This document shows positions 2,469 through 13,368 of a DNA stretch of 64,000 bases, one piece after another (position 1 is the stretch's first letter; each line of letters opens with the position of its first letter). The position numbers were made by a program, and so were the translations under genes. Below the pieces are notes generated by a model that ran no database searches, had not been told where the DNA came from, and worked only from the letters and a program-made list of their open reading frames with translations. The DNA is taken from contig JACKGQ010000001.1 in assembly GCA_020631905.1 (NCBI GenBank), positions 421,854 to 485,853 on the forward strand, in the 5' to 3' direction. This DNA comes from Candidatus Nomurabacteria bacterium. Lineage in GTDB: Bacteria > Patescibacteriota > Saccharimonadia > Saccharimonadales > VXPC01.

Positions 2469-3542
2469 ATGAGCGAAACAGCACCACAATCTAACTACGA
2501 ACAAGAACTCGACAAAGCCATTGGAGACATGGCAGGATTCGATCAGCATCGAAGGGCTGGTTTTGCGCCGGGTAGGTTCGATAATAGGGGTTTTGGCAAT
2601 GTCTATGCAGATGCGAGTCAGGACGCCAGCACACTAACATATGGCGACATTACGGGTGGTGAGGGGCAGCCTAAAATTGTAGGAGATTTGTATTTAGCAC
2701 ACACTGACAATGCTGGCTACGGCTATGATCACGACATACTAGTAGACAGAAGTGGTGGGAGTGGCGCAACAGTCGATGAATATGTTGCAAAACACGACGG
2801 CGACGTAACTATCGAGCGGATTGATCGTAACACCGGGCAGACAGTTTATGAATCAAAATTATCCGGCGAGAAGGCGGCCAAAGCTAAAGAAATTTTAACC
2901 CGATTAGCACTACGCTATGCGAACGAAAAAATCGAAGCTTCCAACGACCCTGAGTTAGTTCAAAAATATGTCGACGAAGCATTCGAACATGTTGAAGCCC
3001 AAGTTGAAGATGAACGTAAAGACTTGCGTAGTGGTGACGAAAAACAAATCCGGGCGGACGCACTTTTGTATCCCGAGACTCATCATTTAGCAAAGCTTGA
3101 GGAAAACGACGCCCAGTCATGGGGCCGTGAGATAGCTTATGTGTTAAAAGAGGATCCACTATATATAGAGCGAGCTTTGCCTCAACTCGAGGCGGCTAGC
3201 CCAGAGACCGTCGAACAGCTCAAGGATATGATAAAAAATAAACTACGACTTCAGCGAGCTGCCAAATATACGCTGAGTAGACACAAAGAGTACTCTACAG
3301 CTAGTCAGCTGTATAGCGTGCTCGAGCAGCTTGGGGTTAAAGTTGGTCGTTACGATAGGCTAAGTAACCCTGCACTCGAGTCTCAGATAAACGATCTTGC
3401 TACAAGGTTAAAGACAAACATGAAGGTTAGGCGCGTTCTCGAGGGTACATTTCGTTCAGCTTCGTCTAGAGTAAATTATCGTCGCCGAAATGCCCCAAGC
3501 AATCATCTGGCAAACGATAGCCCCACGCAGCTAGCCGCCTAG
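2469..3542 (+). CDS. Hypothetical protein (357 aa), acidic and helical, no signal peptide
   Basis: Long ORF with its own consensus promoter. I recognise no motif. Confidence 0.75.
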   Translation: MSETAPQSNYEQELDKAIGDMAGFDQHRRAGFAPGRFDNRGFGNVYADASQDASTLTYGDITGGEGQPKIVGDLYLAHTDNAGYGYDHDILVDRSGGSGATVDEYVAKHDGDVTIERIDRNTGQTVYESKLSGEKAAKAKEILTRLALRYANEKIEASNDPELVQKYVDEAFEHVEAQVEDERKDLRSGDEKQIRADALLYPETHHLAKLEENDAQSWGREIAYVLKEDPLYIERALPQLEAASPETVEQLKDMIKNKLRLQRAAKYTLSRHKEYSTASQLYSVLEQLGVKVGRYDRLSNPALESQINDLATRLKTNMKVRRVLEGTFRSASSRVNYRRRNAPSNHLANDSPTQLAA

Positions 3543-3619
3543 CGATCAACCAGATCTTAGCGAATTGCAAAGATTGTTCGTGCTATAATATTAGTCTATT
3601 AAGGAGTTATTTTGGTTTT

Positions 3620-4171
3620 ATGGATGGTCAACAATACGTAGTTTCTGCTAGTAAAAAGTTTAACGAGTCGGTCGAGCATTTCGAAGCCGAGGCCTCGAAA
3701 GTTCGAACTGGTAGAGCTCACCCGAGTATGCTCGACGGCATTATGGTCGAAGCTTACGGTACCGAAATGCCACTGATTCAGTGTGGTAGTATTAGCGTCC
3801 CCGAAAATACATTGCTCCAGATTACTCCATTCGATCCAAATAACATCCAGGCTATTAGTGCGGCAATTCGCAACGATCAACAGCTGGGCCTCAACCCAAG
3901 CGACGATGGTCGAGTTGTACGCGTGCCGGTACCGCCGCTAACTAGTGAGCGTCGTCAACAACTTGTTAAAGTGCTCAACGAAAAGAAGGAAGATGCCTTT
4001 ATTAGTATGCGTACATCACGCCATGACGCCCTAAAAGAAATCAAAGATAATGTGCCAAGCCAAGACGAAGCCAAGCGTCTCGAAACTCAAGTCGACGAAG
4101 CTATGAACAAAGCTAAAAACCAAATCGAAACTGTAGCCAAAACCAAAGAGCAGGAAATCCTTACAGTCTAA
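3620..4171 (+). CDS. frr: Ribosome recycling factor
   Basis: Full-length RRF pattern (KVRTGRAHPSMLDGIMVEAYG...PLTSERRQQLVK...). Confidence 0.93.
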   Translation: MDGQQYVVSASKKFNESVEHFEAEASKVRTGRAHPSMLDGIMVEAYGTEMPLIQCGSISVPENTLLQITPFDPNNIQAISAAIRNDQQLGLNPSDDGRVVRVPVPPLTSERRQQLVKVLNEKKEDAFISMRTSRHDALKEIKDNVPSQDEAKRLETQVDEAMNKAKNQIETVAKTKEQEILTV

Positions 4172-4176
4172 TTTCC

Positions 4177-4210
4177 TAGATCTTGGATCTTAGAGCTCAG
4201 AGCTTAGAGT
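4177..4210. repeat. Left arm: heptamer array and inverted repeat flanking the four-helix-bundle gene
   Basis: AGATCTT GGATCTT AGAGCTC AGAGCTT AGAGT. 4177-4195 is the reverse complement of 4570-4588 with one mismatch. Confidence 0.9.
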
Positions 4211-4567
4211 ATGTCGACCTACGATTATAAAAAACTAGAAGTCTGGCAGCGTTCCATGAAATTTGTAGTAGCAGTATATTCGGTGTGCGAAAAACTACCC
4301 GACTACGAGAAATATTCATTAGCAGATCAGCTTCGAAGAGCTAGCGTATCGATCCCGTCGAATATTGCAGAGGGACAAAAGCGTGCCAATAAAAAGGAAA
4401 CTGTTCAGTTTACTTATGTTGCCATTAGCTCGCTAGCAGAAGTTGAGACGCAGCTGATACTTGCAAGTAGACTTCACGGCGTAAAAACAGATGATTTATT
4501 AACAGAATGTGAGATAATTGGCCGCATGCTCACAGCACTAACAAACTCTTTGAAGAGGATAAAATGA
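4211..4567 (+). CDS. Four-helix-bundle protein (23S rRNA intervening-sequence protein family)
   Basis: Family-typical KKLEVWQ...A..VY......P..EKYSLADQLRRASVSIPSNIAEGQ....KE...F..A..SL.E..TQL pattern. 118 aa. Confidence 0.88.
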   Translation: MSTYDYKKLEVWQRSMKFVVAVYSVCEKLPDYEKYSLADQLRRASVSIPSNIAEGQKRANKKETVQFTYVAISSLAEVETQLILASRLHGVKTDDLLTECEIIGRMLTALTNSLKRIK

Positions 4568-5283
4568 GCCTCCAAGATCCAAGATCTAAGATCAAAGATC
4601 TAATTCCAAAGCATATTGGGATTATCTTAGATGGTAATCGGCGGTGGGCCGAAGAAAACGGTTTACCGACAATGGAAGGCCACCGAAAAGGTGCCGACAA
4701 TATCGAGTTCGTTGCCGAAGCCTTGTTTGATAAAGGTGTCGAGTATGTGTCTTTATTTGTATTTTCTACCGAAAACTGGAAACGGACTACCGAGGAAGTT
4801 GGCTATCTGATGAAGTTATTTGTAAAGCTGTTCAAAAAAGACAGCCAGCGTTTGATTGATCGAGGTTATCGAATTCTGTTTGCCGGACGACGTGATGGCA
4901 AGATTAACAAAGATATAAGTGAGGCAATCGAAGATCTCGAAGACAGTTCTAAAAATGGTAAGAATGGCACACTTGTTTTTTGCTTCAACTACGGCGGCAC
5001 AACCGAGATAGTCGATGCGGTTAAAGGTATTGTTGAGTCTGGCATAAATCCCGAAGATATCGATGAGCAAACATTGTCCGAAAACATGTATCAACCAGAA
5101 GTCCCACCAATCGATCTGCTGGTGCGGACAAGCGGCGAACAAAGAATCAGTGGTTTTCAGCTATGGCGAGCAGCTTATGCAGAACTGTTGTTTATTGATA
5201 AACACTGGCCAGATTTTAGTCCGGCCGATGCTACAATGATTATCGATGAATTTTCGGCGCGTAACCGGCGGTTTGGAGGCTAA
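4564..5283 (+). CDS. uppS: Isoprenyl transferase / undecaprenyl-diphosphate synthase
   Basis: HIGIILDGNRRWA, FSTENWKR and RTSGEQRISGFQLW motifs. The ATG overlaps the upstream stop (ATGA). Confidence 0.92.
   Translation: MSLQDPRSKIKDLIPKHIGIILDGNRRWAEENGLPTMEGHRKGADNIEFVAEALFDKGVEYVSLFVFSTENWKRTTEEVGYLMKLFVKLFKKDSQRLIDRGYRILFAGRRDGKINKDISEAIEDLEDSSKNGKNGTLVFCFNYGGTTEIVDAVKGIVESGINPEDIDEQTLSENMYQPEVPPIDLLVRTSGEQRISGFQLWRAAYAELLFIDKHWPDFSPADATMIIDEFSARNRRFGG
4570..4603. repeat. Right arm: heptamer array in inverse orientation, inside the first codons of uppS
   Basis: CCAAGAT CCAAGAT CTAAGAT CAAAGAT CTAA. It pairs with 4177-4195. Confidence 0.9.
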
Positions 5284-7219: not shown

Positions 7220-8929
7220 ATGAGATACAGTAAAGCATTTGGTAAAACATCTAAAAACGAGGGTACCGACCTAAGTGTAAAGTCGCACCGTTTATTAGTG
7301 CAGGCAGGATATATTCGGGAGTCGACAGCAGGCCGCTATTACTTACTCCCGCTAGGCATAAAAGTGCAACATAAAATCATCGCGATTATTAAAAAACATA
7401 TGGATCAGGCTGGAGCACAACAACTCGTTACACCAACACTGCACCCGCTAGAGCTCTGGCAAGAAACTAATCGAGATAATGCAGCTGGTTACGAACTGAC
7501 CTATGTTACTGATCGTCGAGGCGCAAAGTTTGCGCTTGGGGGCACAGCCGAAGAAATGATTGTCGATCTAGTGCGTAAGTTTAATATAAGCTACAAAGAT
7601 CTACCTTTTAATGTCTATCAGTTTAGCTTGAAGTTTCGCGATGAAATGCGCGCTCGAGGTGGTTTATTGCGAGTTCGCGAATTTACCATGAAAGATGCTT
7701 ATTCGTTTGGTAACGAAGAGCAATTCGAAGAAACTTATCAGACGATGCGCCAGACATATACAGATATTTTTAAAGAGCTGGGGCTCGAGACAGCAGTCGC
7801 AGAAGCCGATAGCGGTTATATCGGGGGCGAGTATTGTCATGAGTTTATCGCCGATGCCGAAGTGGGAGAGAGTACCTATTACACCGATGGTGAATATGTA
7901 GCTCACGAAGATGTTGCAGTCTTTGAACTCGAACCGCTTAATCTAGAAGAACCAGAAGCTGAGCTGAAAGAAGTTGACGCCGAGCGCGGTACAACTATGC
8001 AGGACGGTGCTGCAATGCACAATCTGCCGATGTGGCAGCAGATCAAAGATGTGATGTATGTAGACGAGGCCAATAATCGCTATATTTTAGCGGTTATACG
8101 GGGAGATTTTGAAGTTAACGAAACCAAGTTGATGCGAGGCTTGGGCCTGCACAATCTACGACTGGCCAACGAAGAAGAAATACGCGATGATATAGGTAGC
8201 GAACCCGGCTTCATTTCGCCGGTAAAGATATCTAAAACAACAAAATCTGGTCGACAGCTAATTGTTGTCGGCGACCCAAGCTTAAAAACTGTTAAGAATG
8301 CGTATGGCGGGGCCAATAGCAAAAATCGCGATTTGCTTAACATTAATTTTGGGCGCGACTATCAGTTAGATCAAGAGTTTGATATCGCCATGGCCCAAGC
8401 AGGCTTTAAGGCAAAATCTGGCAAACCTCTAGAAATGCGAAAAGGTGTAGAGGTGGGCAATATTTTTCAGCTTGGCTACCATTACTCAAACTTAATGAAA
8501 AATGCCGAGTTTACAAATCAACAAGGCTTTCGCCAGAAGTACTACATGGGTTGTTATGGGATTGGGGTTGAACGCACACTAGCTACAATCGCCGAAGTAT
8601 ACGCCGATGAGCATGGGCTTGTCTGGCCGGCGAACGTAGCTCCATACGAGGTTTATCTTGTAAGTATTGGCGATATACAAGACCGAGCCGATGATGTTTA
8701 TGAGCAACTCACTAAAGCCGGAATAGATGTACTCTACGACGATCGCGATGTGCGGCCAGGCGAAAAAATGGCCGACGCGGATTTATTAGGTATACCGATA
8801 CGGCTCGTAATTAGTCCACGGAGCCTAGAAAGTGATCAAGTAGAAGTAAAGCTGCGCACCAGTGCTGAATCCGAACTTGTCGAGCTTAAATCATTAATCA
8901 AACATATACATCAACTGCTTTCAAAGTAG
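7220..8929 (+). CDS. proS: Prolyl-tRNA synthetase (bacterial type with insertion/editing domain)
   Basis: Class II motifs (FRDEMRARGGLLRVREFTMKDAYSF; GCYGIGVERT) and a C-terminal anticodon-binding domain. 569 aa. Confidence 0.92.
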   Translation: MRYSKAFGKTSKNEGTDLSVKSHRLLVQAGYIRESTAGRYYLLPLGIKVQHKIIAIIKKHMDQAGAQQLVTPTLHPLELWQETNRDNAAGYELTYVTDRRGAKFALGGTAEEMIVDLVRKFNISYKDLPFNVYQFSLKFRDEMRARGGLLRVREFTMKDAYSFGNEEQFEETYQTMRQTYTDIFKELGLETAVAEADSGYIGGEYCHEFIADAEVGESTYYTDGEYVAHEDVAVFELEPLNLEEPEAELKEVDAERGTTMQDGAAMHNLPMWQQIKDVMYVDEANNRYILAVIRGDFEVNETKLMRGLGLHNLRLANEEEIRDDIGSEPGFISPVKISKTTKSGRQLIVVGDPSLKTVKNAYGGANSKNRDLLNINFGRDYQLDQEFDIAMAQAGFKAKSGKPLEMRKGVEVGNIFQLGYHYSNLMKNAEFTNQQGFRQKYYMGCYGIGVERTLATIAEVYADEHGLVWPANVAPYEVYLVSIGDIQDRADDVYEQLTKAGIDVLYDDRDVRPGEKMADADLLGIPIRLVISPRSLESDQVEVKLRTSAESELVELKSLIKHIHQLLSK

Positions 8930-9052
8930 TTTTTTGGTTGTATAAAATAAAGCTGTACAACCGGCATTTGCTAGTGTAGACTGAAGCGCTAATAAACTAC
9001 TTTGAGCCAGATACGTGGGGACATCGCTGAGTTGTTAAATAGGAGTATTATT

Positions 9053-9508
9053 ATGAATAAACAGTTTCACTTAACCAAAGACGGAATCGAAGAGCTAAAT
9101 GCAGAAATCAAGCAGCTGATGAGTCGGCGAGTGGAAATCGCCGAAGCTATTAATATTGCGCGCCAACAGGGCGACTTGTCCGAGAATGCCGAATACACTG
9201 CTGCAAAATCCGACCAAGAACGTACTGAAAAGCGAATTGCCGAAATCGATCACATCCTAAAGAACGTGGCAGTTATTAAGCAGCGTAAATCCGACAAAGT
9301 TGTGCTAGGTTCGGTGGTTGAATTAAAAAATGCAGAAGGTAAAGCCACTTTTACAGTTGTCGGGACAGTTGAGGCTGATCCGCTTTCTGGCAAAGTAAGC
9401 GATGTCTCGCCAATCGGTAGTGCACTTTTGGGTAAATCAGTTGGTGATGACGTCGAGATCGTCTTGCCGAGCAAAACCAAGAAATATAAGGTCGCAAGCA
9501 TCAGCTAG
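9053..9508 (+). CDS. greA: Transcription elongation factor GreA
   Basis: LTKDGIEEL...GDLSENAEYTAAK coiled-coil followed by a C-terminal FKBP-like domain. AGGAG (9041-9045) lies 7 nt upstream of the ATG at 9053. The ORF track extends to a TTG at 9002. Confidence 0.9.
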   Translation: MNKQFHLTKDGIEELNAEIKQLMSRRVEIAEAINIARQQGDLSENAEYTAAKSDQERTEKRIAEIDHILKNVAVIKQRKSDKVVLGSVVELKNAEGKATFTVVGTVEADPLSGKVSDVSPIGSALLGKSVGDDVEIVLPSKTKKYKVASIS

Positions 9509-9588: not shown

Positions 9589-11550
9589 ATGGCAACACTC
9601 AAAGAATATCGAGACGAGCAGTTAGCAAAAGTATCAAGACTACGCGAAATGGGTATAGATCCGTATCCAGCCAAGAGCTTTCGCGATACTCAGGTTTCTG
9701 AAATCATTAACAACCCAGAATCAAAGATGGGCCAAGGTGTCTGTATAGCCGGTAGGTTAGTTGCACATCGTCAGCACGGCAAGGTTCAATTCATCGACCT
9801 AGAAGATTCCGGGGCCACAATCCAGGTGATAGTGCACGATGGCTCACTCCAACCAGAGTATCCAAAAGGCTTACTTGGTTTTGCAGATCTAGGCTTATTA
9901 ACGCGAGGTGATTTTGTAGAGGTAGCTGGGGTAGTAGCCAACAGCCAAACCGGTCAACTCTCGATCGAGGCCAAAGGCGTGCGCATATTAACCAAAGTAC
10001 TCCGACCACTGCCAGACAAGCTCGACGACAAAGAATCACGCCTACGCCGACGTTACCTCGACATGGCGGTTAACCCAGAAGTTCGTGAGCGATTTGTTCG
10101 TCGGAGCAAGTTTTGGCAAGCAACTCGTAATTTTTTAAACGGTGAAGGTTTTACTGAAATCAATATTCCTGTACTCGAGCATACGACTGGTGGGGCAGAT
10201 GCCAACCCATTCGTAACTCATATGGACGCGCTTGGCGAAGACTTTTATCTGCGGATTAGCCATGAGTTGCCACTCAAGCGGTTACTGGGAGCTGGTTTTA
10301 CTAAGGTTTACGACATAGGCCCACGCTTCCGCAACGAAAACTATAGTGATGAACATTTACCCGAACATGTAGCTATGGAATGGTACTGGGCTTATGCCAA
10401 CTGGGAAGATGGCATGCAACTAACTCAGAGAATGGTGCGCTACATTGCCGACAACACTTGGGGAACCCGCCAATTTACGCTAGCCAACGGTATGCAAATC
10501 GATCTAGGCGCCGACGATCAAGATTGGCCAAAAATAAGTTTTGTTGGCTTACTCCAAGAAAAATATGGTCTAGATGTGCACACATGCAGCCTCGAAGAAG
10601 CAGTAGCCAAACTCAAAGAAGTTGGTGGCGAGGTCGAGAAAGTCGAAAACCGCAGCCGGGTAATCGATAAACTTTGGAAACTCGAACGCATTAAAATTGC
10701 CGGGCCGGCATTTCTGATTGAAGTACCTGATTTCTTGCAGCCGCTCGCCAAACTCAACAATTCCGACAACCGTTCAAGTGAACAGTTCAACCTAATGCTG
10801 GGTGGCAGCGAAGCTTGCAAAGCATATAGTGAGCTTAACGATCCGCTAGATCAATATGGTCGGTTTGTGCAGCAACAGCAGATGCGTCAGGCGGGTGACG
10901 ACGAGGCGATGATGATGGATGTCGACTTTGTCGAGATGCTCGAGTATGGCATGCCGCCGGCATGTGGCTATGGCAATAGCGAGCGATTATTTTGGATGCT
11001 CGAAGGTGTAACCGCCCGCGAAGGTGTCGTGTTCCCACAACTTCGCAGGGAAGTTGACGAGACAACTAAGGGCATTTACCCCGAAGTATATGCTGCCGAT
11101 GGTTTGCTCGCCAATGCCAGTGGCCGCGAGCAGGACTTTACCAAAAGGATAGTCGCGGTGGTCAACAAGCAACTAGAGTCATGGCAAGTAGCCAACACGG
11201 CCGCCCATATGAGCGCCTACCATGCTCACAAAATGGCCAAAGACGAATTTGATAGTGGTGAGTTTTTTGTAACAAAAGATAACCACATGTTGCCCCGCAA
11301 CAGCCAGCACCCAATCCTTATCAAGAAAGCCGAGCTCAAAGAGCTACACAAGCTGTACAACAAAGCCAAAGAAGCAGGTATCCGGCTGCATGTATTTATA
11401 AAAGAGATGATCGATACAAATAGTGATGCCGAGATAGTTGAGTCGCTCAAATATCAAACAATCGACGAAGTAGTAATCTATGGTATCGCGCTGTATGGCG
11501 AAAACGAAACGGTCAATAATCTAACTAAGCATTTCCAGCTCTGGAACTAA
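9589..11550 (+). CDS. lysS: Lysyl-tRNA synthetase (class II) fused to a C-terminal DUF2000 / PTH2-like domain
   Basis: OB-fold N-terminus and class II core (FRNENYSDEHLPEH.MEWY; GYGNSERL). The LysRS body ends near VVFPQLRRE (about aa 490). An extra ~140 aa from about nt 11125 (KRIVAVVNKQLESWQVANTAAH...IYGIALYGENETVNNLTKHFQLW) resembles DUF2000. Confidence 0.88.
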   Translation: MATLKEYRDEQLAKVSRLREMGIDPYPAKSFRDTQVSEIINNPESKMGQGVCIAGRLVAHRQHGKVQFIDLEDSGATIQVIVHDGSLQPEYPKGLLGFADLGLLTRGDFVEVAGVVANSQTGQLSIEAKGVRILTKVLRPLPDKLDDKESRLRRRYLDMAVNPEVRERFVRRSKFWQATRNFLNGEGFTEINIPVLEHTTGGADANPFVTHMDALGEDFYLRISHELPLKRLLGAGFTKVYDIGPRFRNENYSDEHLPEHVAMEWYWAYANWEDGMQLTQRMVRYIADNTWGTRQFTLANGMQIDLGADDQDWPKISFVGLLQEKYGLDVHTCSLEEAVAKLKEVGGEVEKVENRSRVIDKLWKLERIKIAGPAFLIEVPDFLQPLAKLNNSDNRSSEQFNLMLGGSEACKAYSELNDPLDQYGRFVQQQQMRQAGDDEAMMMDVDFVEMLEYGMPPACGYGNSERLFWMLEGVTAREGVVFPQLRREVDETTKGIYPEVYAADGLLANASGREQDFTKRIVAVVNKQLESWQVANTAAHMSAYHAHKMAKDEFDSGEFFVTKDNHMLPRNSQHPILIKKAELKELHKLYNKAKEAGIRLHVFIKEMIDTNSDAEIVESLKYQTIDEVVIYGIALYGENETVNNLTKHFQLWN

Positions 11551-11596: not shown

Positions 11597-12343
11597 ATGT
11601 CAAGAGAGCATGATGAACATATGCCCGAGCAGTCAGGTCACGATCACGATGTCGATGATAGATTGCCTTGCGCCGATCAACACCAGCATCAACACGACCA
11701 TGCCGAGGCCGGCCATAGCCATAGTTTGTCCGATATCACGCTCGATGAAGCCGAAGGCCACTTACGAGATGATGCAAGGGTTCTGAGCGCAGTTGGCGGT
11801 GCGGCTGTTGTTAGCGAAGCAGTCGGTTTGTCGTATCTAAAAACAGTTTTTTCGCTGGGGGGTGAAGATGCCTGGTGGGTAATTCGTAATGCTCGCAAAG
11901 CCTGGCGCAATGAAACAGGTAACCGCTGGCGAAAACTAAATGCTGCTTTCCAGGCAAGCAAAATATCTTTAGCTACAGTTGTGGCAGTTTCGGCATTTGC
12001 CGCACCGGTTGTCGAGTACATGGTCGACCACTCGCCGAAGCTTGCGACCACTGGTGTTTTTTGTGCTGCCGCAACTGCAACTTCCACAGTCGCACTAATC
12101 GAAGATGCCCGAAATGATCGCCTAAATCATGTGCATACAGACATAGCAGAAATGCACGCGCGCCAGTTTCGCACAGAGGGCATAATTGGTACGTATGTTC
12201 TTGGTTTTGCAGGCTACGAACTTATTGGTAATGGCAACCCAATCTATATGGCAATTGTCGGCGGCACAGACTGTTTATGGACAGGCTTTCGTAGTTGGCG
12301 ATATGTTTCTAGAGTTTCTGAGCTGCACAATCAGACACGATAA
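11597..12343 (+). CDS. Hypothetical membrane protein with a His/Asp-rich N-terminus
   Basis: 13 His in the first ~55 aa (HDEHMPEQSGHDHDVDD...QHQHQHDHAEAGHSH), followed by several hydrophobic helices. Confidence 0.7.
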   Translation: MSREHDEHMPEQSGHDHDVDDRLPCADQHQHQHDHAEAGHSHSLSDITLDEAEGHLRDDARVLSAVGGAAVVSEAVGLSYLKTVFSLGGEDAWWVIRNARKAWRNETGNRWRKLNAAFQASKISLATVVAVSAFAAPVVEYMVDHSPKLATTGVFCAAATATSTVALIEDARNDRLNHVHTDIAEMHARQFRTEGIIGTYVLGFAGYELIGNGNPIYMAIVGGTDCLWTGFRSWRYVSRVSELHNQTR

Positions 12344-12411: not shown

Positions 12412-13368
12412 ATGGCTTCGTCCAAACGTACGACTACTAAAAAACCTAGCACAGCACGACCAAAAGCTGCCAAAAAACCAGCTGCGAGCAAGACAGCCGC
12501 TGTCAAAACAACTTCTAAAAAACCAGTTGCAAAAACGGTAGCAAAAAAAGTAACCAGCAAAACAACTGCTACTAAGGTAGCAAAACCTGCAGCTAAAAAG
12601 AAAAACGCTACAGATAAGTTTATGCAACTAAAACAGTGGAACCTAGCCCTAGGTGTACTTCATGCTGCTCAAGCAGTAGCGGTGTTTTTACTGGCCAAGG
12701 ATTTCCGAGTGCCTTTTAGAACAGAATATCTAACGTTTAACGAAGCTACACAGAGTTTAGAGTCGGCTTCGCGTTTGCTATTCGAACTACCGCTAGCTTG
12801 GCTAATTGTGGCCTTTTTCGCGATGAGCTCGATAGCCCATTTTGTAATTGCCGGACCTTGGTTTAAAAAATATAAAGCTGATTTAGAAAAAGGTATGAAC
12901 CGTGCTCGCTGGGTAGAGTACGCTGTAAGCGCCAGTACGATGATGGTCGCGATCGCAGCATTAGTTGGTGTAGTTAGTTTACCACTAGCCTTTAGCATGT
13001 TTGCATTAACTGCAGTCATGAACTTACTTGGTTTAGTTATGGAAACGCACAATCAGGGTCAAGCCAAACCAAATTGGCTGAGTTATTGGGTTGGCACAAT
13101 TGCCGGCTTAGTACCTTGGCTTGTTGTTGCCAGCTACTTTGTTAGTAACTGGTTTTATGGCAGTGGCAATCCGCCAACCTTTGTTTACATTATTTTTGTA
13201 AGCATTTTTGTAGCCTTTAGTAGTTTTGCAGTTAATATGTGGTTGCAGTACAAAAAGAAAGGCAAGTGGGCCGACTATCTTTACGGCGAAAAAGCCTATA
13301 TGGTTCTTAGCCTTGTTGCCAAAAGCGCCTTAGCTTGGCAAATATTTGGCGGTACTTTGCGCCCATAA
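12412..13368 (+). CDS. Heliorhodopsin, with a possible Lys/Ala/Thr-rich N-terminal extension
   Basis: aa 74-318 match heliorhodopsin along the whole length (GVLHAAQ; IAHFVI; RWVEYAVSAS; GLVPW; GEKAYMVLSLVAKSALAWQIFGGTL). Schiff-base Lys304 is at nt 13321-13323. The alternative start at M71 (nt 12622) would give a canonical-length protein. Confidence 0.88.
   Translation: MASSKRTTTKKPSTARPKAAKKPAASKTAAVKTTSKKPVAKTVAKKVTSKTTATKVAKPAAKKKNATDKFMQLKQWNLALGVLHAAQAVAVFLLAKDFRVPFRTEYLTFNEATQSLESASRLLFELPLAWLIVAFFAMSSIAHFVIAGPWFKKYKADLEKGMNRARWVEYAVSASTMMVAIAALVGVVSLPLAFSMFALTAVMNLLGLVMETHNQGQAKPNWLSYWVGTIAGLVPWLVVASYFVSNWFYGSGNPPTFVYIIFVSIFVAFSSFAVNMWLQYKKKGKWADYLYGEKAYMVLSLVAKSALAWQIFGGTLRP

Follow-up and report, generated by a model that had tools for sequence, protein, structure and literature searches.

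Class II lysyl-tRNA synthetase (LysRS) is a dimer that is thought to depend on pretransfer editing by cyclization, and we know of no LysRS editing domain described in the standard literature. The established editing domains of aminoacyl-tRNA synthetases (aaRSs), namely AlaX and the second additional domain of ThrRS and AlaRS, the PheRS editing domain B3/4, and the INS/YbaK domain of ProRS, are extra folded domains that also exist in free-standing form. A different kind of appendage is known from LysX, an MprF-LysRS fusion, and from fungal ErdS, an AspRS-DUF2156 fusion, in which the attached domain acts on the aminoacyl-tRNA of its own synthetase; in such cases, the fusion revealed the function of the DUF (PMC7334510). 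Pth2, another enzyme acting on tRNA esters, is a homodimer (PMC11994314), and in Pth-deficient Escherichia coli, Lys-tRNA-Lys is specifically limiting, according to the work of Heurgue-Hamard et al. (1996, EMBO J 15:2826) as cited in PMC11994314. A crystal structure from the DUF2000 family was determined in 2006 [Atu0240, Protein Data Bank (PDB) 2GAX], and the function of the family is unassigned. Our literature search on this family found no paper mentioning it and no activity data for any DUF2000 protein, and searches on LysRS editing domains in Patescibacteria, on Saccharibacteria LysRS, and on PTH2-aaRS fusions returned nothing relevant.

The gene considered here is the housekeeping class II LysRS gene of a Saccharibacteria (CPR/Patescibacteria) genome and carries a DUF2000 domain at its 3′ end. 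It was found in a 64-kb stretch of DNA, which is referred to in full as the window. One unbroken open reading frame (ORF) encodes all 653 amino acids (Table 1). Nucleotides 11125 to 11550 translate to REQDFTKRIVAVVNKQLESWQ...TKHFQLWN followed by the stop codon, which is identical to the tail quoted in the preliminary description of this DNA.

Table 1. Features of the LysRS-DUF2000 gene and of its upstream neighbors (window coordinates).
Feature	Coordinates	Strand	Basis
Whole LysRS-DUF2000 fusion gene	9589..11550	+	ORF list; 653 aa + stop codon
OB-fold anticodon-binding domain (aa 51-134)	9739..9990	+	Pfam PF01336 tRNA_anti-codon, E 7e-11
Class II (D/K/N) catalytic core (aa 148-484)	10030..11040	+	Pfam PF00152 tRNA-synt_2, E 2e-57
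Linker (aa 489-512), including conserved IYPEV segment	11053..11124	+	AF2 model, conservation
DUF2000 domain (aa 513-653), PTH2-superfamily fold	11125..11547	+	Pfam PF09391, AF2, Foldseek, hhalign
N536-T-A-A-H540, helix alpha1	11194..11208	+	Translation = NTAAH
F603-x-K-E-M607-x-x-T610-x-x-D613 segment, after strand beta3; second conserved patch	11401..11427	+	
ProRS with INS/tRNA_edit domain	7220-8929	+	Pfam + ORFs; upstream of LysRS, syntenic
GreA	9002-9508	+	Pfam + ORFs; upstream of LysRS, syntenic

The preliminary description had placed the end of a complete LysRS core at the motif VVFPQLRRE. This motif corresponds to residues 480 to 488, and both the OB anticodon-binding domain and the catalytic core upstream of it are complete as judged by Pfam and by structure alignment, the core aligning end to end with the solved LysRS structures 9jkl and 3a74. 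All 120 homologs compared retain the class II motif 2/3 residues R248, E250, H256, E264, Y266, E408, E415, and R466. The best NCBIfam matches of the core are lysine--tRNA ligase models (NF001756 / TIGR00499), with scores of 435 and 384 bits against cutoffs of 468 and 427.6, and all 10 divergent fusion relatives tested exceed the NCBIfam LysRS cutoff. The database protein that matches ours exactly (P0001), encoded on a 770-kb contig, bears the name [quoted passage not shown] probably because the scores of the LysRS models fall below these cutoffs, a shortfall that we attribute to the fusion; genomes with such a LysRS can wrongly look devoid of annotated LysRS. The scores of the EpmA and LysX models (NCBIfam) are far below the respective cutoffs. 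Judging from these low scores and from synteny with plain lysS, the synthetase is the housekeeping ortholog and not an EpmA/LysX-type paralog. The LysRS core is intact under every architecture compared, and active-site substitutions (L257, H260, S/T407, and K/N411) showed no correlation with the presence of the appendage, being common to plain and fused forms.

The covalent attachment of the tail to a complete LysRS, which the preliminary description had proposed, is borne out by the single ORF and by its recurrence. The same in-frame architecture is present in 92 of the 120 best homologs and at 40 of the 63 species-representative genome loci, all from independent assemblies, while standalone DUF2000 proteins of ~140 amino acids are encoded at 22 of the 63. 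The fusion signal is far beyond chance. That a separate downstream gene was joined artifactually, through a missed stop codon or a frameshift introduced during sequencing or assembly, has a negligible probability, and we reject this origin of the fusion: The ORF is continuous, the junction DNA contains no homopolymer run and no stop codon, the linker holds invariant residues, and the architecture recurs in independent assemblies. The one observation in favor of such an artifact is a relative (L009) in which LysRS and DUF2000 lie in different frames, as in a fusion split by a frameshift. An error of this kind is the opposite of artifactual joining.

The linker is the least conserved region of the protein (column conservation, 0.585; pN, 0.20 to 0.25), with Y497 and P498 invariant in 32 fusions. 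In the full-length AF2 model, pLDDT values are 42 to 58 across residues 483 to 512, and DUF2000 is predicted to be joined to the LysRS C terminus by a flexible tether of about 25 to 30 residues. The domain itself was modeled with a pLDDT of 95.9. Its assignment to DUF2000, made earlier from the family pattern, proved correct: Pfam PF09391 matches residues 519 to 652 (profile positions 1 to 132 of 133), scoring 86 bits when the entire protein is searched and 90 bits (E = 1.3e-25) when only the tail is, the cutoff being 25, and comparison of the profile with 2GAX gave an E value of 2.8e-34. Foldseek aligned the model to 2gax_A (Atu0240) with an E value of 3.7e-12, TM scores of 0.84/0.88, and an rmsd of 2.2. 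The domain is under purifying selection, with a pN of 0.13 to 0.18 at saturated pS; pN and pS are given since dN/dS proper is not computable when synonymous sites are saturated.

An Asn at position 536 is found in 106 of 107 nonredundant DUF2000 domains and is the single residue invariant family-wide. His at position 540 (101 of 107), M607 (97 of 107), and D613 (77 of 107) are also conserved, and E606 and T610 are majority residues. Atu0240 has the invariant Asn and a C-terminal LTKxFxLW-type motif in common with the window domain. In contrast, its subgroup has Phe at the position of His540, which is present in the window domain and in about 94% of the family, and Atu0240 is a standalone 135–amino acid protein, whereas the window domain is covalently attached to LysRS. 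The net charge of DUF2000 domains is near-neutral, with a median of −1 to −2.

DUF2000 belongs, as a divergent branch, to the superfamily of the archaeal/eukaryotic peptidyl-tRNA hydrolase PTH2, in agreement with the fold resemblance suggested earlier. The only significant Foldseek matches besides 2GAX are the archaeal Pth2 structures 1wn2, 1xty, and 3erj (E = 2-3e-4, probability 1.00, TM 0.55 to 0.68), the next match having an E value of 0.12, and hhalign aligned DUF2000 with PTH2 at 94% (E = 1.5e-7, 111 columns). The match to the PTH2 profile PF01981 is subthreshold, with 20.2 bits for the tail alone and 16.4 for the full-length protein at a cutoff of 23, as is that to TIGR00283 (14.3 bits; cutoff, 82). 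PTH2 proteins (1xty, 1wn2, 3erj, 2zv3, and human Bit1 1q7s) have the same alpha/beta fold and secondary-structure order as DUF2000. Both also have a conserved His in helix alpha1 and, in the C-terminal strand, the motif (I/L)T(G/K)x(L/F)xL(L/W). However, the invariant Asn is a DUF2000 feature that is not found in PTH2, and of five PTH2 chains, four are basic, with net charges of +2 to +6, and one has a charge of −1, while DUF2000 is neutral to acidic.

The catalytic roles of Lys18 and Asp86 in PTH2 (Sulfolobus solfataricus numbering) are said to have been described by Fromant et al. in 2005. When Lys18, which belongs to the GKGK loop, and Asp86, which belongs to the DAGxT motif, were looked for in DUF2000, neither was recovered; the residues common to both families are limited to His25 and the T(G/K) motif at the C terminus. 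In the hhalign alignment, PTH2 A21/H25 fall on N536/H540, and K18 falls on Q533, which is variable in the DUF2000 family; the GKGK loop with its catalytic Lys is missing, and a two-residue deletion removes the GK dipeptide. PTH2 D86 falls at K605/E606 in an ambiguous register. Since two extra DUF2000 helices (residues 606 to 620) stand in place of the PTH2 DAGxT...PGT loop, the register of the F603-D613 patch relative to the D-A-G-x-T motif is likewise ambiguous. The N536/H540 helix together with E606-M607...T610...D613 constitutes a candidate functional site, located on the structural elements that form the PTH2 active site. No Pth1 or DTD motifs were found within the 64-kb window.

To the question of how widely LysRS-DUF2000 fusions occur, the counts given above for homologs and loci provide one answer; another comes from phmmer, which, run exhaustively against 1.84 billion representatives, yielded 157 DUF2000 matches. 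A LysRS core is present in 29 of the 31 matches of 230 amino acids or more, and no other aaRS partner of DUF2000 was seen among the matches. Fusions are spread over many CPR lineages and some metagenome-assembled genomes labeled as Gammaproteobacteria. Clustered at 30% identity, the fused domains separate into four or more groups, with standalone proteins interspersed among them. Proteins P0048 and P0084 are 67 to 68% identical to the window protein in the core but only 31 to 32% in the domain; for group A, the values are 56 to 82% and 44 to 78%, respectively. A neighbor-joining tree of LysRS cores requires at least 11 changes of architecture. Plain LysRS accounts for 25 of the 120 homologs, and close relatives manage without DUF2000. 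LysRS thereby appears to be the near-exclusive partner of DUF2000 among fused proteins, and the fusion appears to have evolved, or its domain to have been replaced, repeatedly.

The order ProRS-GreA followed by LysRS is kept whether LysRS is plain (L064), fused to an AlaX-like domain (L066), fused to DUF2000 of subtype C (L067), or encoded by the window gene, and the longer order RRF-UppS-RseP-Rce1-ProRS-GreA-LysRS recurs in relatives with other LysRS architectures. The ProRS adjoining LysRS in the window carries INS. In proteins P0095 and P0117, an AlaX-like domain alone occupies the C terminus of LysRS, the position held elsewhere by DUF2000, and Pfam coordinates place the AlaX-like domain of P0111 at the C terminus as well. 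These architectures show that the C-terminal appendage of LysRS is interchangeable with a known editing-domain family. Some LysRS-DUF2000 proteins contain further domains: B3/4 in P0135, an AlaX-like domain in P0156, and an HD domain after DUF2000 in L061, P0138, and P0153. Like editing domains, DUF2000 is a separately folded appendage that also exists free-standing (22 standalone versus 40 fused loci) and can be exchanged with AlaX-like; its fold is unrelated to that of any established editing domain.

Standalone DUF2000 genes have varied neighbors. In one locus (L031), the gene for the lysine exporter LysO is directly upstream; in another (L054), a NUDIX gene overlaps the start of DUF2000; in a third (L038), an HD protein is encoded directly upstream. 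At 12 of the 63 loci, fused and standalone, there is a flanking gene for an ACT-like protein of 213 amino acids that weakly resembles the regulatory domains with which aspartokinase binds lysine. These neighbors point to lysine or nucleotides as much as to tRNA. The tRNA genes close to standalone DUF2000 genes are those for Thr, Ser, Phe, Gly, and Asp, with none for Lys, and neither a lysine riboswitch nor a T-box was found in the vicinity of lysS or of the standalone genes.

The almost exclusive association with LysRS, the fusion of at least four subtypes, the AlaX-like domain in the same slot, and the co-occurrence with B3/4 or AlaX-like domains strengthen the idea, put forward in the preliminary description, of a cis-acting deacylase or editing module or a tRNA-binding appendage. 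We infer, with a confidence slightly below an even chance, that the DUF2000 tail acts in cis to hydrolyze tRNA-Lys that is wrongly acylated, or else N-blocked/peptidyl-tRNA-Lys. The fold relationship, the purifying selection on the domain, the flexible tether, the intact LysRS core, and the limitation of Pth-deficient E. coli by Lys-tRNA-Lys also speak for this reading. The tethered domain would capture the acylated 3′ end of tRNA-Lys and hydrolyze the ester bond of tRNA-Lys species that should not persist. Its substrate could be tRNA-Lys bearing a wrong amino acid or a lysine analog, in which case it would perform post-transfer editing, or N-blocked/peptidyl-tRNA-Lys, in which case it would serve recycling; the freed tRNA-Lys would be recharged by the adjacent synthetic site of LysRS. 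Because the PTH2 catalytic Lys is absent, the chemistry must differ from that of PTH2. The loss of this Lys, the ambiguous Asp86 equivalent, the nonbasic character of the domain, and its score below the Pfam PTH2 threshold argue against a hydrolase, as do the close relatives that lack DUF2000, the neighbors of standalone genes, and the absence of an associated tRNA-Lys gene or lysine riboswitch. In addition, P0135 and P0156 combine DUF2000 with a genuine editing-type domain, so that the editing activity may lie outside DUF2000.

Alternatively, DUF2000 might bind or hydrolyze lysine, a lysine analog, lysyl-adenylate, or an Ap4A-type product, regulating or cleaning LysRS chemistry without touching tRNA. 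Much Ap4A is made by LysRS, and the known hydrolases of Ap4A have HD or NUDIX folds. The LysO, NUDIX, and HD neighbors, the fused HD domains, the ACT-like protein, the low basicity, and the missing catalytic Lys are all compatible with such a role. We nevertheless consider it unlikely, as the only fold relatives of DUF2000 are tRNA-ester hydrolases, AlaX-like and B3/4 belong to aminoacyl-tRNA deacylase families, every neighbor association except that of the ACT-like protein comes from a single locus, and the searched regions lack a lysine riboswitch. An appendage that binds the acceptor/CCA end or Lys-tRNA-Lys without PTH2 catalysis, providing affinity, product retention, or hand-over in the manner of other RNA-binding domains appended to aaRSs, would also account for the missing Lys, for a single family-wide invariant residue, for the flexible tether, and for dispensability in close relatives. 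Yet the conserved polar N536 and H540 and the E/T/D patch resemble a catalytic or ligand site more than an RNA-backbone surface, an acidic-to-neutral domain is unusual for RNA binding, and standalone forms are more readily understood as trans-acting enzymes than as affinity tags, which makes this role improbable. Less credible still is the use of Lys-tRNA-Lys from LysRS by DUF2000 to lysylate another molecule, as LysX and ErdS would suggest. Here, the precedent of aaRS-DUF fusions that revealed aminoacyl-tRNA transferases and the presence of LysX among the NCBIfam matches of the core stand against several features: Known aminoacyl-tRNA transferases, including the domains appended in LysX and ErdS, have a different, GNAT-like fold, whereas DUF2000 resembles a hydrolase of the PTH2 type; the domain is small (135 amino acids) and soluble, without a membrane segment; and orthologs fill the same slot with hydrolytic editing domains. 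We regard a transferase as very improbable.

For the DUF2000 family, the fusions represent the first testable clue to function, and their near-exclusive, repeated occurrence with LysRS, together with exchange with AlaX-like in the same slot, directs attention to a single tRNA and a single amino acid. The broader proposal, including its slot and defense components, is that DUF2000 is an unrecognized PTH2-derived, tRNA-Lys–specific ester hydrolase engaged either in post-transfer editing on LysRS, to which textbooks ascribe no domain of this kind, or in dedicated peptidyl/N-acyl-tRNA-Lys recycling; we advance it tentatively and hold it to be possible but somewhat doubtful. If it is correct, the aaRS quality-control modules would gain a further fold, and class II LysRS would be capable of post-transfer proofreading or recycling. 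The LysRS of host-dependent, reduced-genome bacteria (CPR, Chlamydiae, and Dependentiae) would then have a modular “quality-control slot” occupied by DUF2000, AlaX-like, B3/4, or HD domains. Standalone DUF2000 proteins, through their linkage to LysO and an ACT-like sensor, may serve in defense against lysine analogs of the thialysine/ornithine type. Such a module would bear on how faithfully proteins are made in CPR bacteria and in other symbionts relying on imported amino acids.

The 653-residue fusion protein joins a lysyl-tRNA synthetase (LysRS) to a DUF2000 domain. The preliminary description had placed the end of the LysRS core near VVFPQLRRE and a DUF2000 tail at 11125–11550. Both were recovered: the motif lies at aa 480–488, and the tail, translated as REQDFTKRIVAVVNKQLESWQ...TKHFQLWN*, was identified by profile search as DUF2000 (PF09391) over nearly the whole profile, scoring 86 to 90 bits (cutoff 25; E 1.3e-25 when the tail was searched by itself). 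The match to the peptidyl-tRNA hydrolase PTH2 (PF01981) was sub-threshold (20 versus 23 bits). The top NCBIfam models for the core were lysine--tRNA ligase, with scores slightly below both cutoffs (435 versus 468 and 384 versus 428). Since the exact protein, from a 770-kb contig, is in addition named [quoted passage not shown] at NCBI, automated annotation can make genomes appear to lack LysRS. The architecture is not unseen, as public databases already store and automatically name such proteins. Catalytic-motif residues of the core were invariant in 120 of 120 homologs regardless of architecture, and clade-specific core substitutions were common to fused LysRS forms and plain ones without an appended domain. 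In the full-length AlphaFold model (pTM 0.61), the DUF2000 part was well folded (pLDDT 85 to 93); the low confidence of aa 483–512 between core and domain (pLDDT 42 to 58) is consistent with a flexible tether.

A separate downstream gene joined to lysS by a frameshift or assembly error can be excluded. The DNA at the junction between core and DUF2000 contains no stop codon and no homopolymer run, and the identical three-domain architecture was found in 92 of the 120 best homologs, down to ~53% identity. When one genome per GTDB species was scanned with a pattern built from the window's DUF2000 subtype, 63 loci were found: 40 encode the domain in one ORF with LysRS and 22 as a standalone gene of ~140 aa. 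In the remaining one (L009, 2580–4417, on the 799-kb chromosome OY970318.1), a frameshift divides the LysRS-DUF2000 gene into two ORFs that overlap in different frames; either an indel error of the assembly or recent pseudogenization is the probable cause. Comparison of the window gene with its two closest relatives showed saturation at synonymous sites (pS 0.74 to 0.95), and nonsynonymous divergence of DUF2000 (0.13 to 0.18) was lower than that of the N-terminal OB region (0.19 to 0.31) and linker (0.20 to 0.25) and higher than that of the catalytic core (0.09 to 0.11). Its low value relative to the saturated pS indicates that the domain is maintained by selection.

The domain matched Atu0240 (2GAX), the only solved DUF2000 protein, with an E value of 5e-5 alone and 2.8e-34 with a 45-sequence profile. 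AlphaFold modeled aa 513–653 very confidently (pLDDT 95.9, pTM 0.88), and 2GAX was the top Foldseek match in PDB (E 3.7e-12, TM 0.84/0.88). It was followed only by three archaeal Pth2 structures, 1wn2, 1xty, and 3erj (E 2–3e-4, probability 1.00, TM 0.55 to 0.68); the following match had an E value of 0.12. Profile-profile alignment of DUF2000 with five true PTH2 sequences taken from PDB gave 94% probability and an E value of 1.5e-7 over 111 columns. The PTH2-like fold initially suggested for the family is thus borne out, and DUF2000 forms a divergent lineage within the PTH2 superfamily. Membership in the PTH2 family itself was rejected: Pfam and TIGRFAM thresholds are not reached, the GKGK loop is shorter, and two additional helices (aa 606–620) stand in place of the DAGxT...PGT loop, which makes the equivalent of Asp86 ambiguous (K605 or E606).

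The DUF2000 signature comprises N536 (106/107 nonredundant domains), H540 (101/107), M607, D613, G632, G637, and T646-K647; W532, N571, and Q573 are enriched among LysRS-fused domains. The conserved residues map to the structural elements that carry the active site in PTH2. The position of Lys18, reportedly catalytic in PTH2, aligns with the nonconserved Q533. Both groups have in common the helix-alpha1 His (H540) and a C-terminal strand, LTKxFxLW in DUF2000 and ITGxLKLL in PTH2. DUF2000 domains are near-neutral, with a median net charge of −1 to −2; of the five PTH2 chains, four carry +2 to +6 and one −1.

With the domain alone as query, phmmer was run exhaustively against 1.84 billion representative proteins and yielded 157 matches. 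A LysRS-like core was present in 29 of the 31 matches of at least 230 aa; the other two were P0213 (DUF2000 with a short tail) and P0243 (568 aa), in which a fatty-acid desaturase (PF00487) precedes DUF2000; of these two, only P0243 is a fusion to a different domain. Ten divergent fusions, with cores 31 to 41% identical to that of the window protein, all scored above the NCBIfam LysRS cutoff, so the partner is LysRS; AspRS and AsnRS are ruled out by the same scores. Fused loci occur in Saccharibacteria, Levyibacteriota, Dojkabacteria, Amesbacteria, Doudnabacteria, Peregrinibacteria, Paceibacterota, and several MAGs labeled Gammaproteobacteria; further CPR lineages, Chlamydiae, and Babeliales have the domain as a standalone gene. 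Most lineages carrying DUF2000 are host-dependent with reduced genomes.

Gene order around lysS is conserved between the window and its relatives. At the position following ProRS-GreA, L064 has a plain LysRS of 508 aa, L066 (5001–7316) a 771-aa LysRS ending in an AlaX-like domain, L067 a LysRS with another DUF2000 subtype, and the closest relative, L068, the window's architecture. The genes in this slot are therefore orthologous housekeeping lysS with interchangeable C-terminal appendages. The ProRS INS domain is shared with L067; the syntenic ProRS of L064, L066, and L068 (416 to 423 aa) lack it, so editing-domain content varies for the neighboring synthetase too, inside one conserved block of genes. 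Downstream of lysS, a heliorhodopsin gene is likewise found at L064, L066, and L068, and L068 has an unannotated 229-aa ORF at the position of the window's 248-aa ORF, which has no Pfam match. The + strand of the 64-kb window carries nearly all long ORFs, with GC skew positive throughout; neither tRNA genes (ARAGORN) nor Rfam families at gathering threshold were found across it.

Features of the window and of related loci (L handles) with a ~213-aa protein beside DUF2000
Feature	Position	Strand	Remarks
RRF	3620		
UppS	4564		
RseP	5284		
Rce1-like	6440		
ProRS	7220-8929	+	569 aa; inserted INS/tRNA_edit domain, aa 257-373
GreA	9002		
LysRS-DUF2000 gene	9589..11550	+	single uninterrupted ORF, 653 aa
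OB anticodon-binding domain	aa 51-134		Pfam
Class II D/K/N core	aa 148-484		Pfam, E 2e-57
DUF2000 (PF09391)	aa 519-652		Pfam, profile positions 1-132 of 133
248-aa ORF	11597-12343	+	46 bp downstream of lysS; His/Asp-rich N terminus, hydrophobic C-terminal half
Heliorhodopsin	12412-13368	+	PF18761, E 1e-90; ~70-aa N-terminal extension rich in Lys, Ala, Thr
HAD	13436		after heliorhodopsin
~213-aa protein	L028 3221-3862	-	
~213-aa protein	L031 2382-3023	-	
~213-aa protein	L008 4431-5084	-	
~213-aa protein	L026 920-1585	-	
~213-aa protein	L029 1471-2121	-	
~213-aa protein	L044 18-695	-	
~213-aa protein	L030, L039, L041, L043, L046, L053		

AlaX-like domains (C-terminal part of PF01411 plus tRNA_SAD, aa ~530–771) replace DUF2000 in the Patescibacteria orthologs P0095, P0111, and P0117 as well as at L066, with cores 67 to 68% identical to the window's; an AlaX-type domain on LysRS is unusual. 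Other proteins combine LysRS with B3/4, the PheRS-beta editing domain, and DUF2000 (P0135, 906 aa), with DUF2000 and an AlaX-like domain (P0156), or with DUF2000 and HD (P0138, P0153, and the full-length L061 of Doudnabacteria, 2504–5023); an 866-aa form (L035, 1817–4414) has ~250 residues without an assigned domain between core and DUF2000. Clustering at ~30% identity placed the LysRS-fused domains in at least four clusters interleaved with standalone proteins. P0048 and P0084 have cores 67 to 68% identical to the window's (main-group range 56 to 82%) and DUF2000 domains only 31 to 32% identical (main group 44 to 78%), a mismatch that indicates domain replacement or independent fusion. A neighbor-joining tree of 120 cores, without bootstrap and indicative only, required at least 11 architecture changes.

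The only relatives by fold cut the ester between peptide and A76 of tRNA, the fusion partner is almost exclusively the enzyme producing Lys-tRNA-Lys, and the alternative or additional modules, AlaX-like and B3/4, are aminoacyl-tRNA deacylase families. On these grounds the simplest inference, made with slightly less than even confidence, is that DUF2000 may be a hydrolase of tRNA-Lys acylated at its 3′ end, with fused domains working in cis and free ones in trans. Either a wrong amino acid or lysine analog (editing) or an N-blocked or peptidyl group (recycling) would be removed, and the freed tRNA-Lys would go back to the site of synthesis. For the recycling variant there is specific support in the background: Pth-deficient E. 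coli is reportedly limited specifically by Lys-tRNA-Lys (Heurgue-Hamard et al. 1996, EMBO J 15:2826). Class II LysRS is a dimer. Pth2 is a homodimer as well (PMC11994314), so the fusion would pair two DUF2000 domains. The desaturase fusion P0243 does not fit a tRNA-Lys role. Loss of the PTH2 catalytic Lys would suit a noncatalytic binder of the tRNA end, which the conserved polar patch, non-basic charge, and free-standing forms fit poorly; we regard it as improbable. A Lys-tRNA–dependent transferase, as in LysX or ErdS (PMC7334510), is made very improbable by the fold.

Neighborhoods of standalone DUF2000 genes lend some plausibility to a lysine or small-molecule module, a reading that we consider unlikely, although of appreciable probability. 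At single loci, standalone DUF2000 directly follows a LysO lysine exporter (L031, 3409–3993, +), an HD protein (L038, 3395–3976, +), or an AlaRS-like gene (L055, 2105–3949, +); a NUDIX hydrolase gene overlaps the DUF2000 start (L054, 3537–4001, +), and nondiscriminating AspRS, GNAT, and DUF2000 are consecutive (L024, 2153–4002, +). In 12 of 63 loci, four of them fused, DUF2000 adjoins a usually divergently transcribed ~213-aa protein of a large CPR family (1143 homologs, sometimes named "aspartokinase" by JGI). It has no Pfam match, and its C terminus weakly resembles aspartokinase ACT regulatory domains (PDB profile matches nearly all aspartokinases, best E 0.008). It may be an amino acid–sensing partner or regulator; no copy was found within the 64-kb window. 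These LysRS/DUF2000 loci showed no association with a lysine riboswitch, a T-box, or a tRNA-Lys gene. To functions other than those considered we jointly assign roughly a slim share of the probability.

In the literature covered, which is thin on subscription journals, neither DUF2000 nor a LysRS carrying such a domain came up as the subject of a publication. The protein fits best among synthetases that carry an additional domain for putative quality control, although LysRS is not known to bear such an addition, nor this fold to serve that purpose. The "appendage slot" of CPR LysRS proves to be unusually plastic, and the main value of the fusion is that the function of DUF2000, an orphan yet structurally solved family, becomes directly testable.
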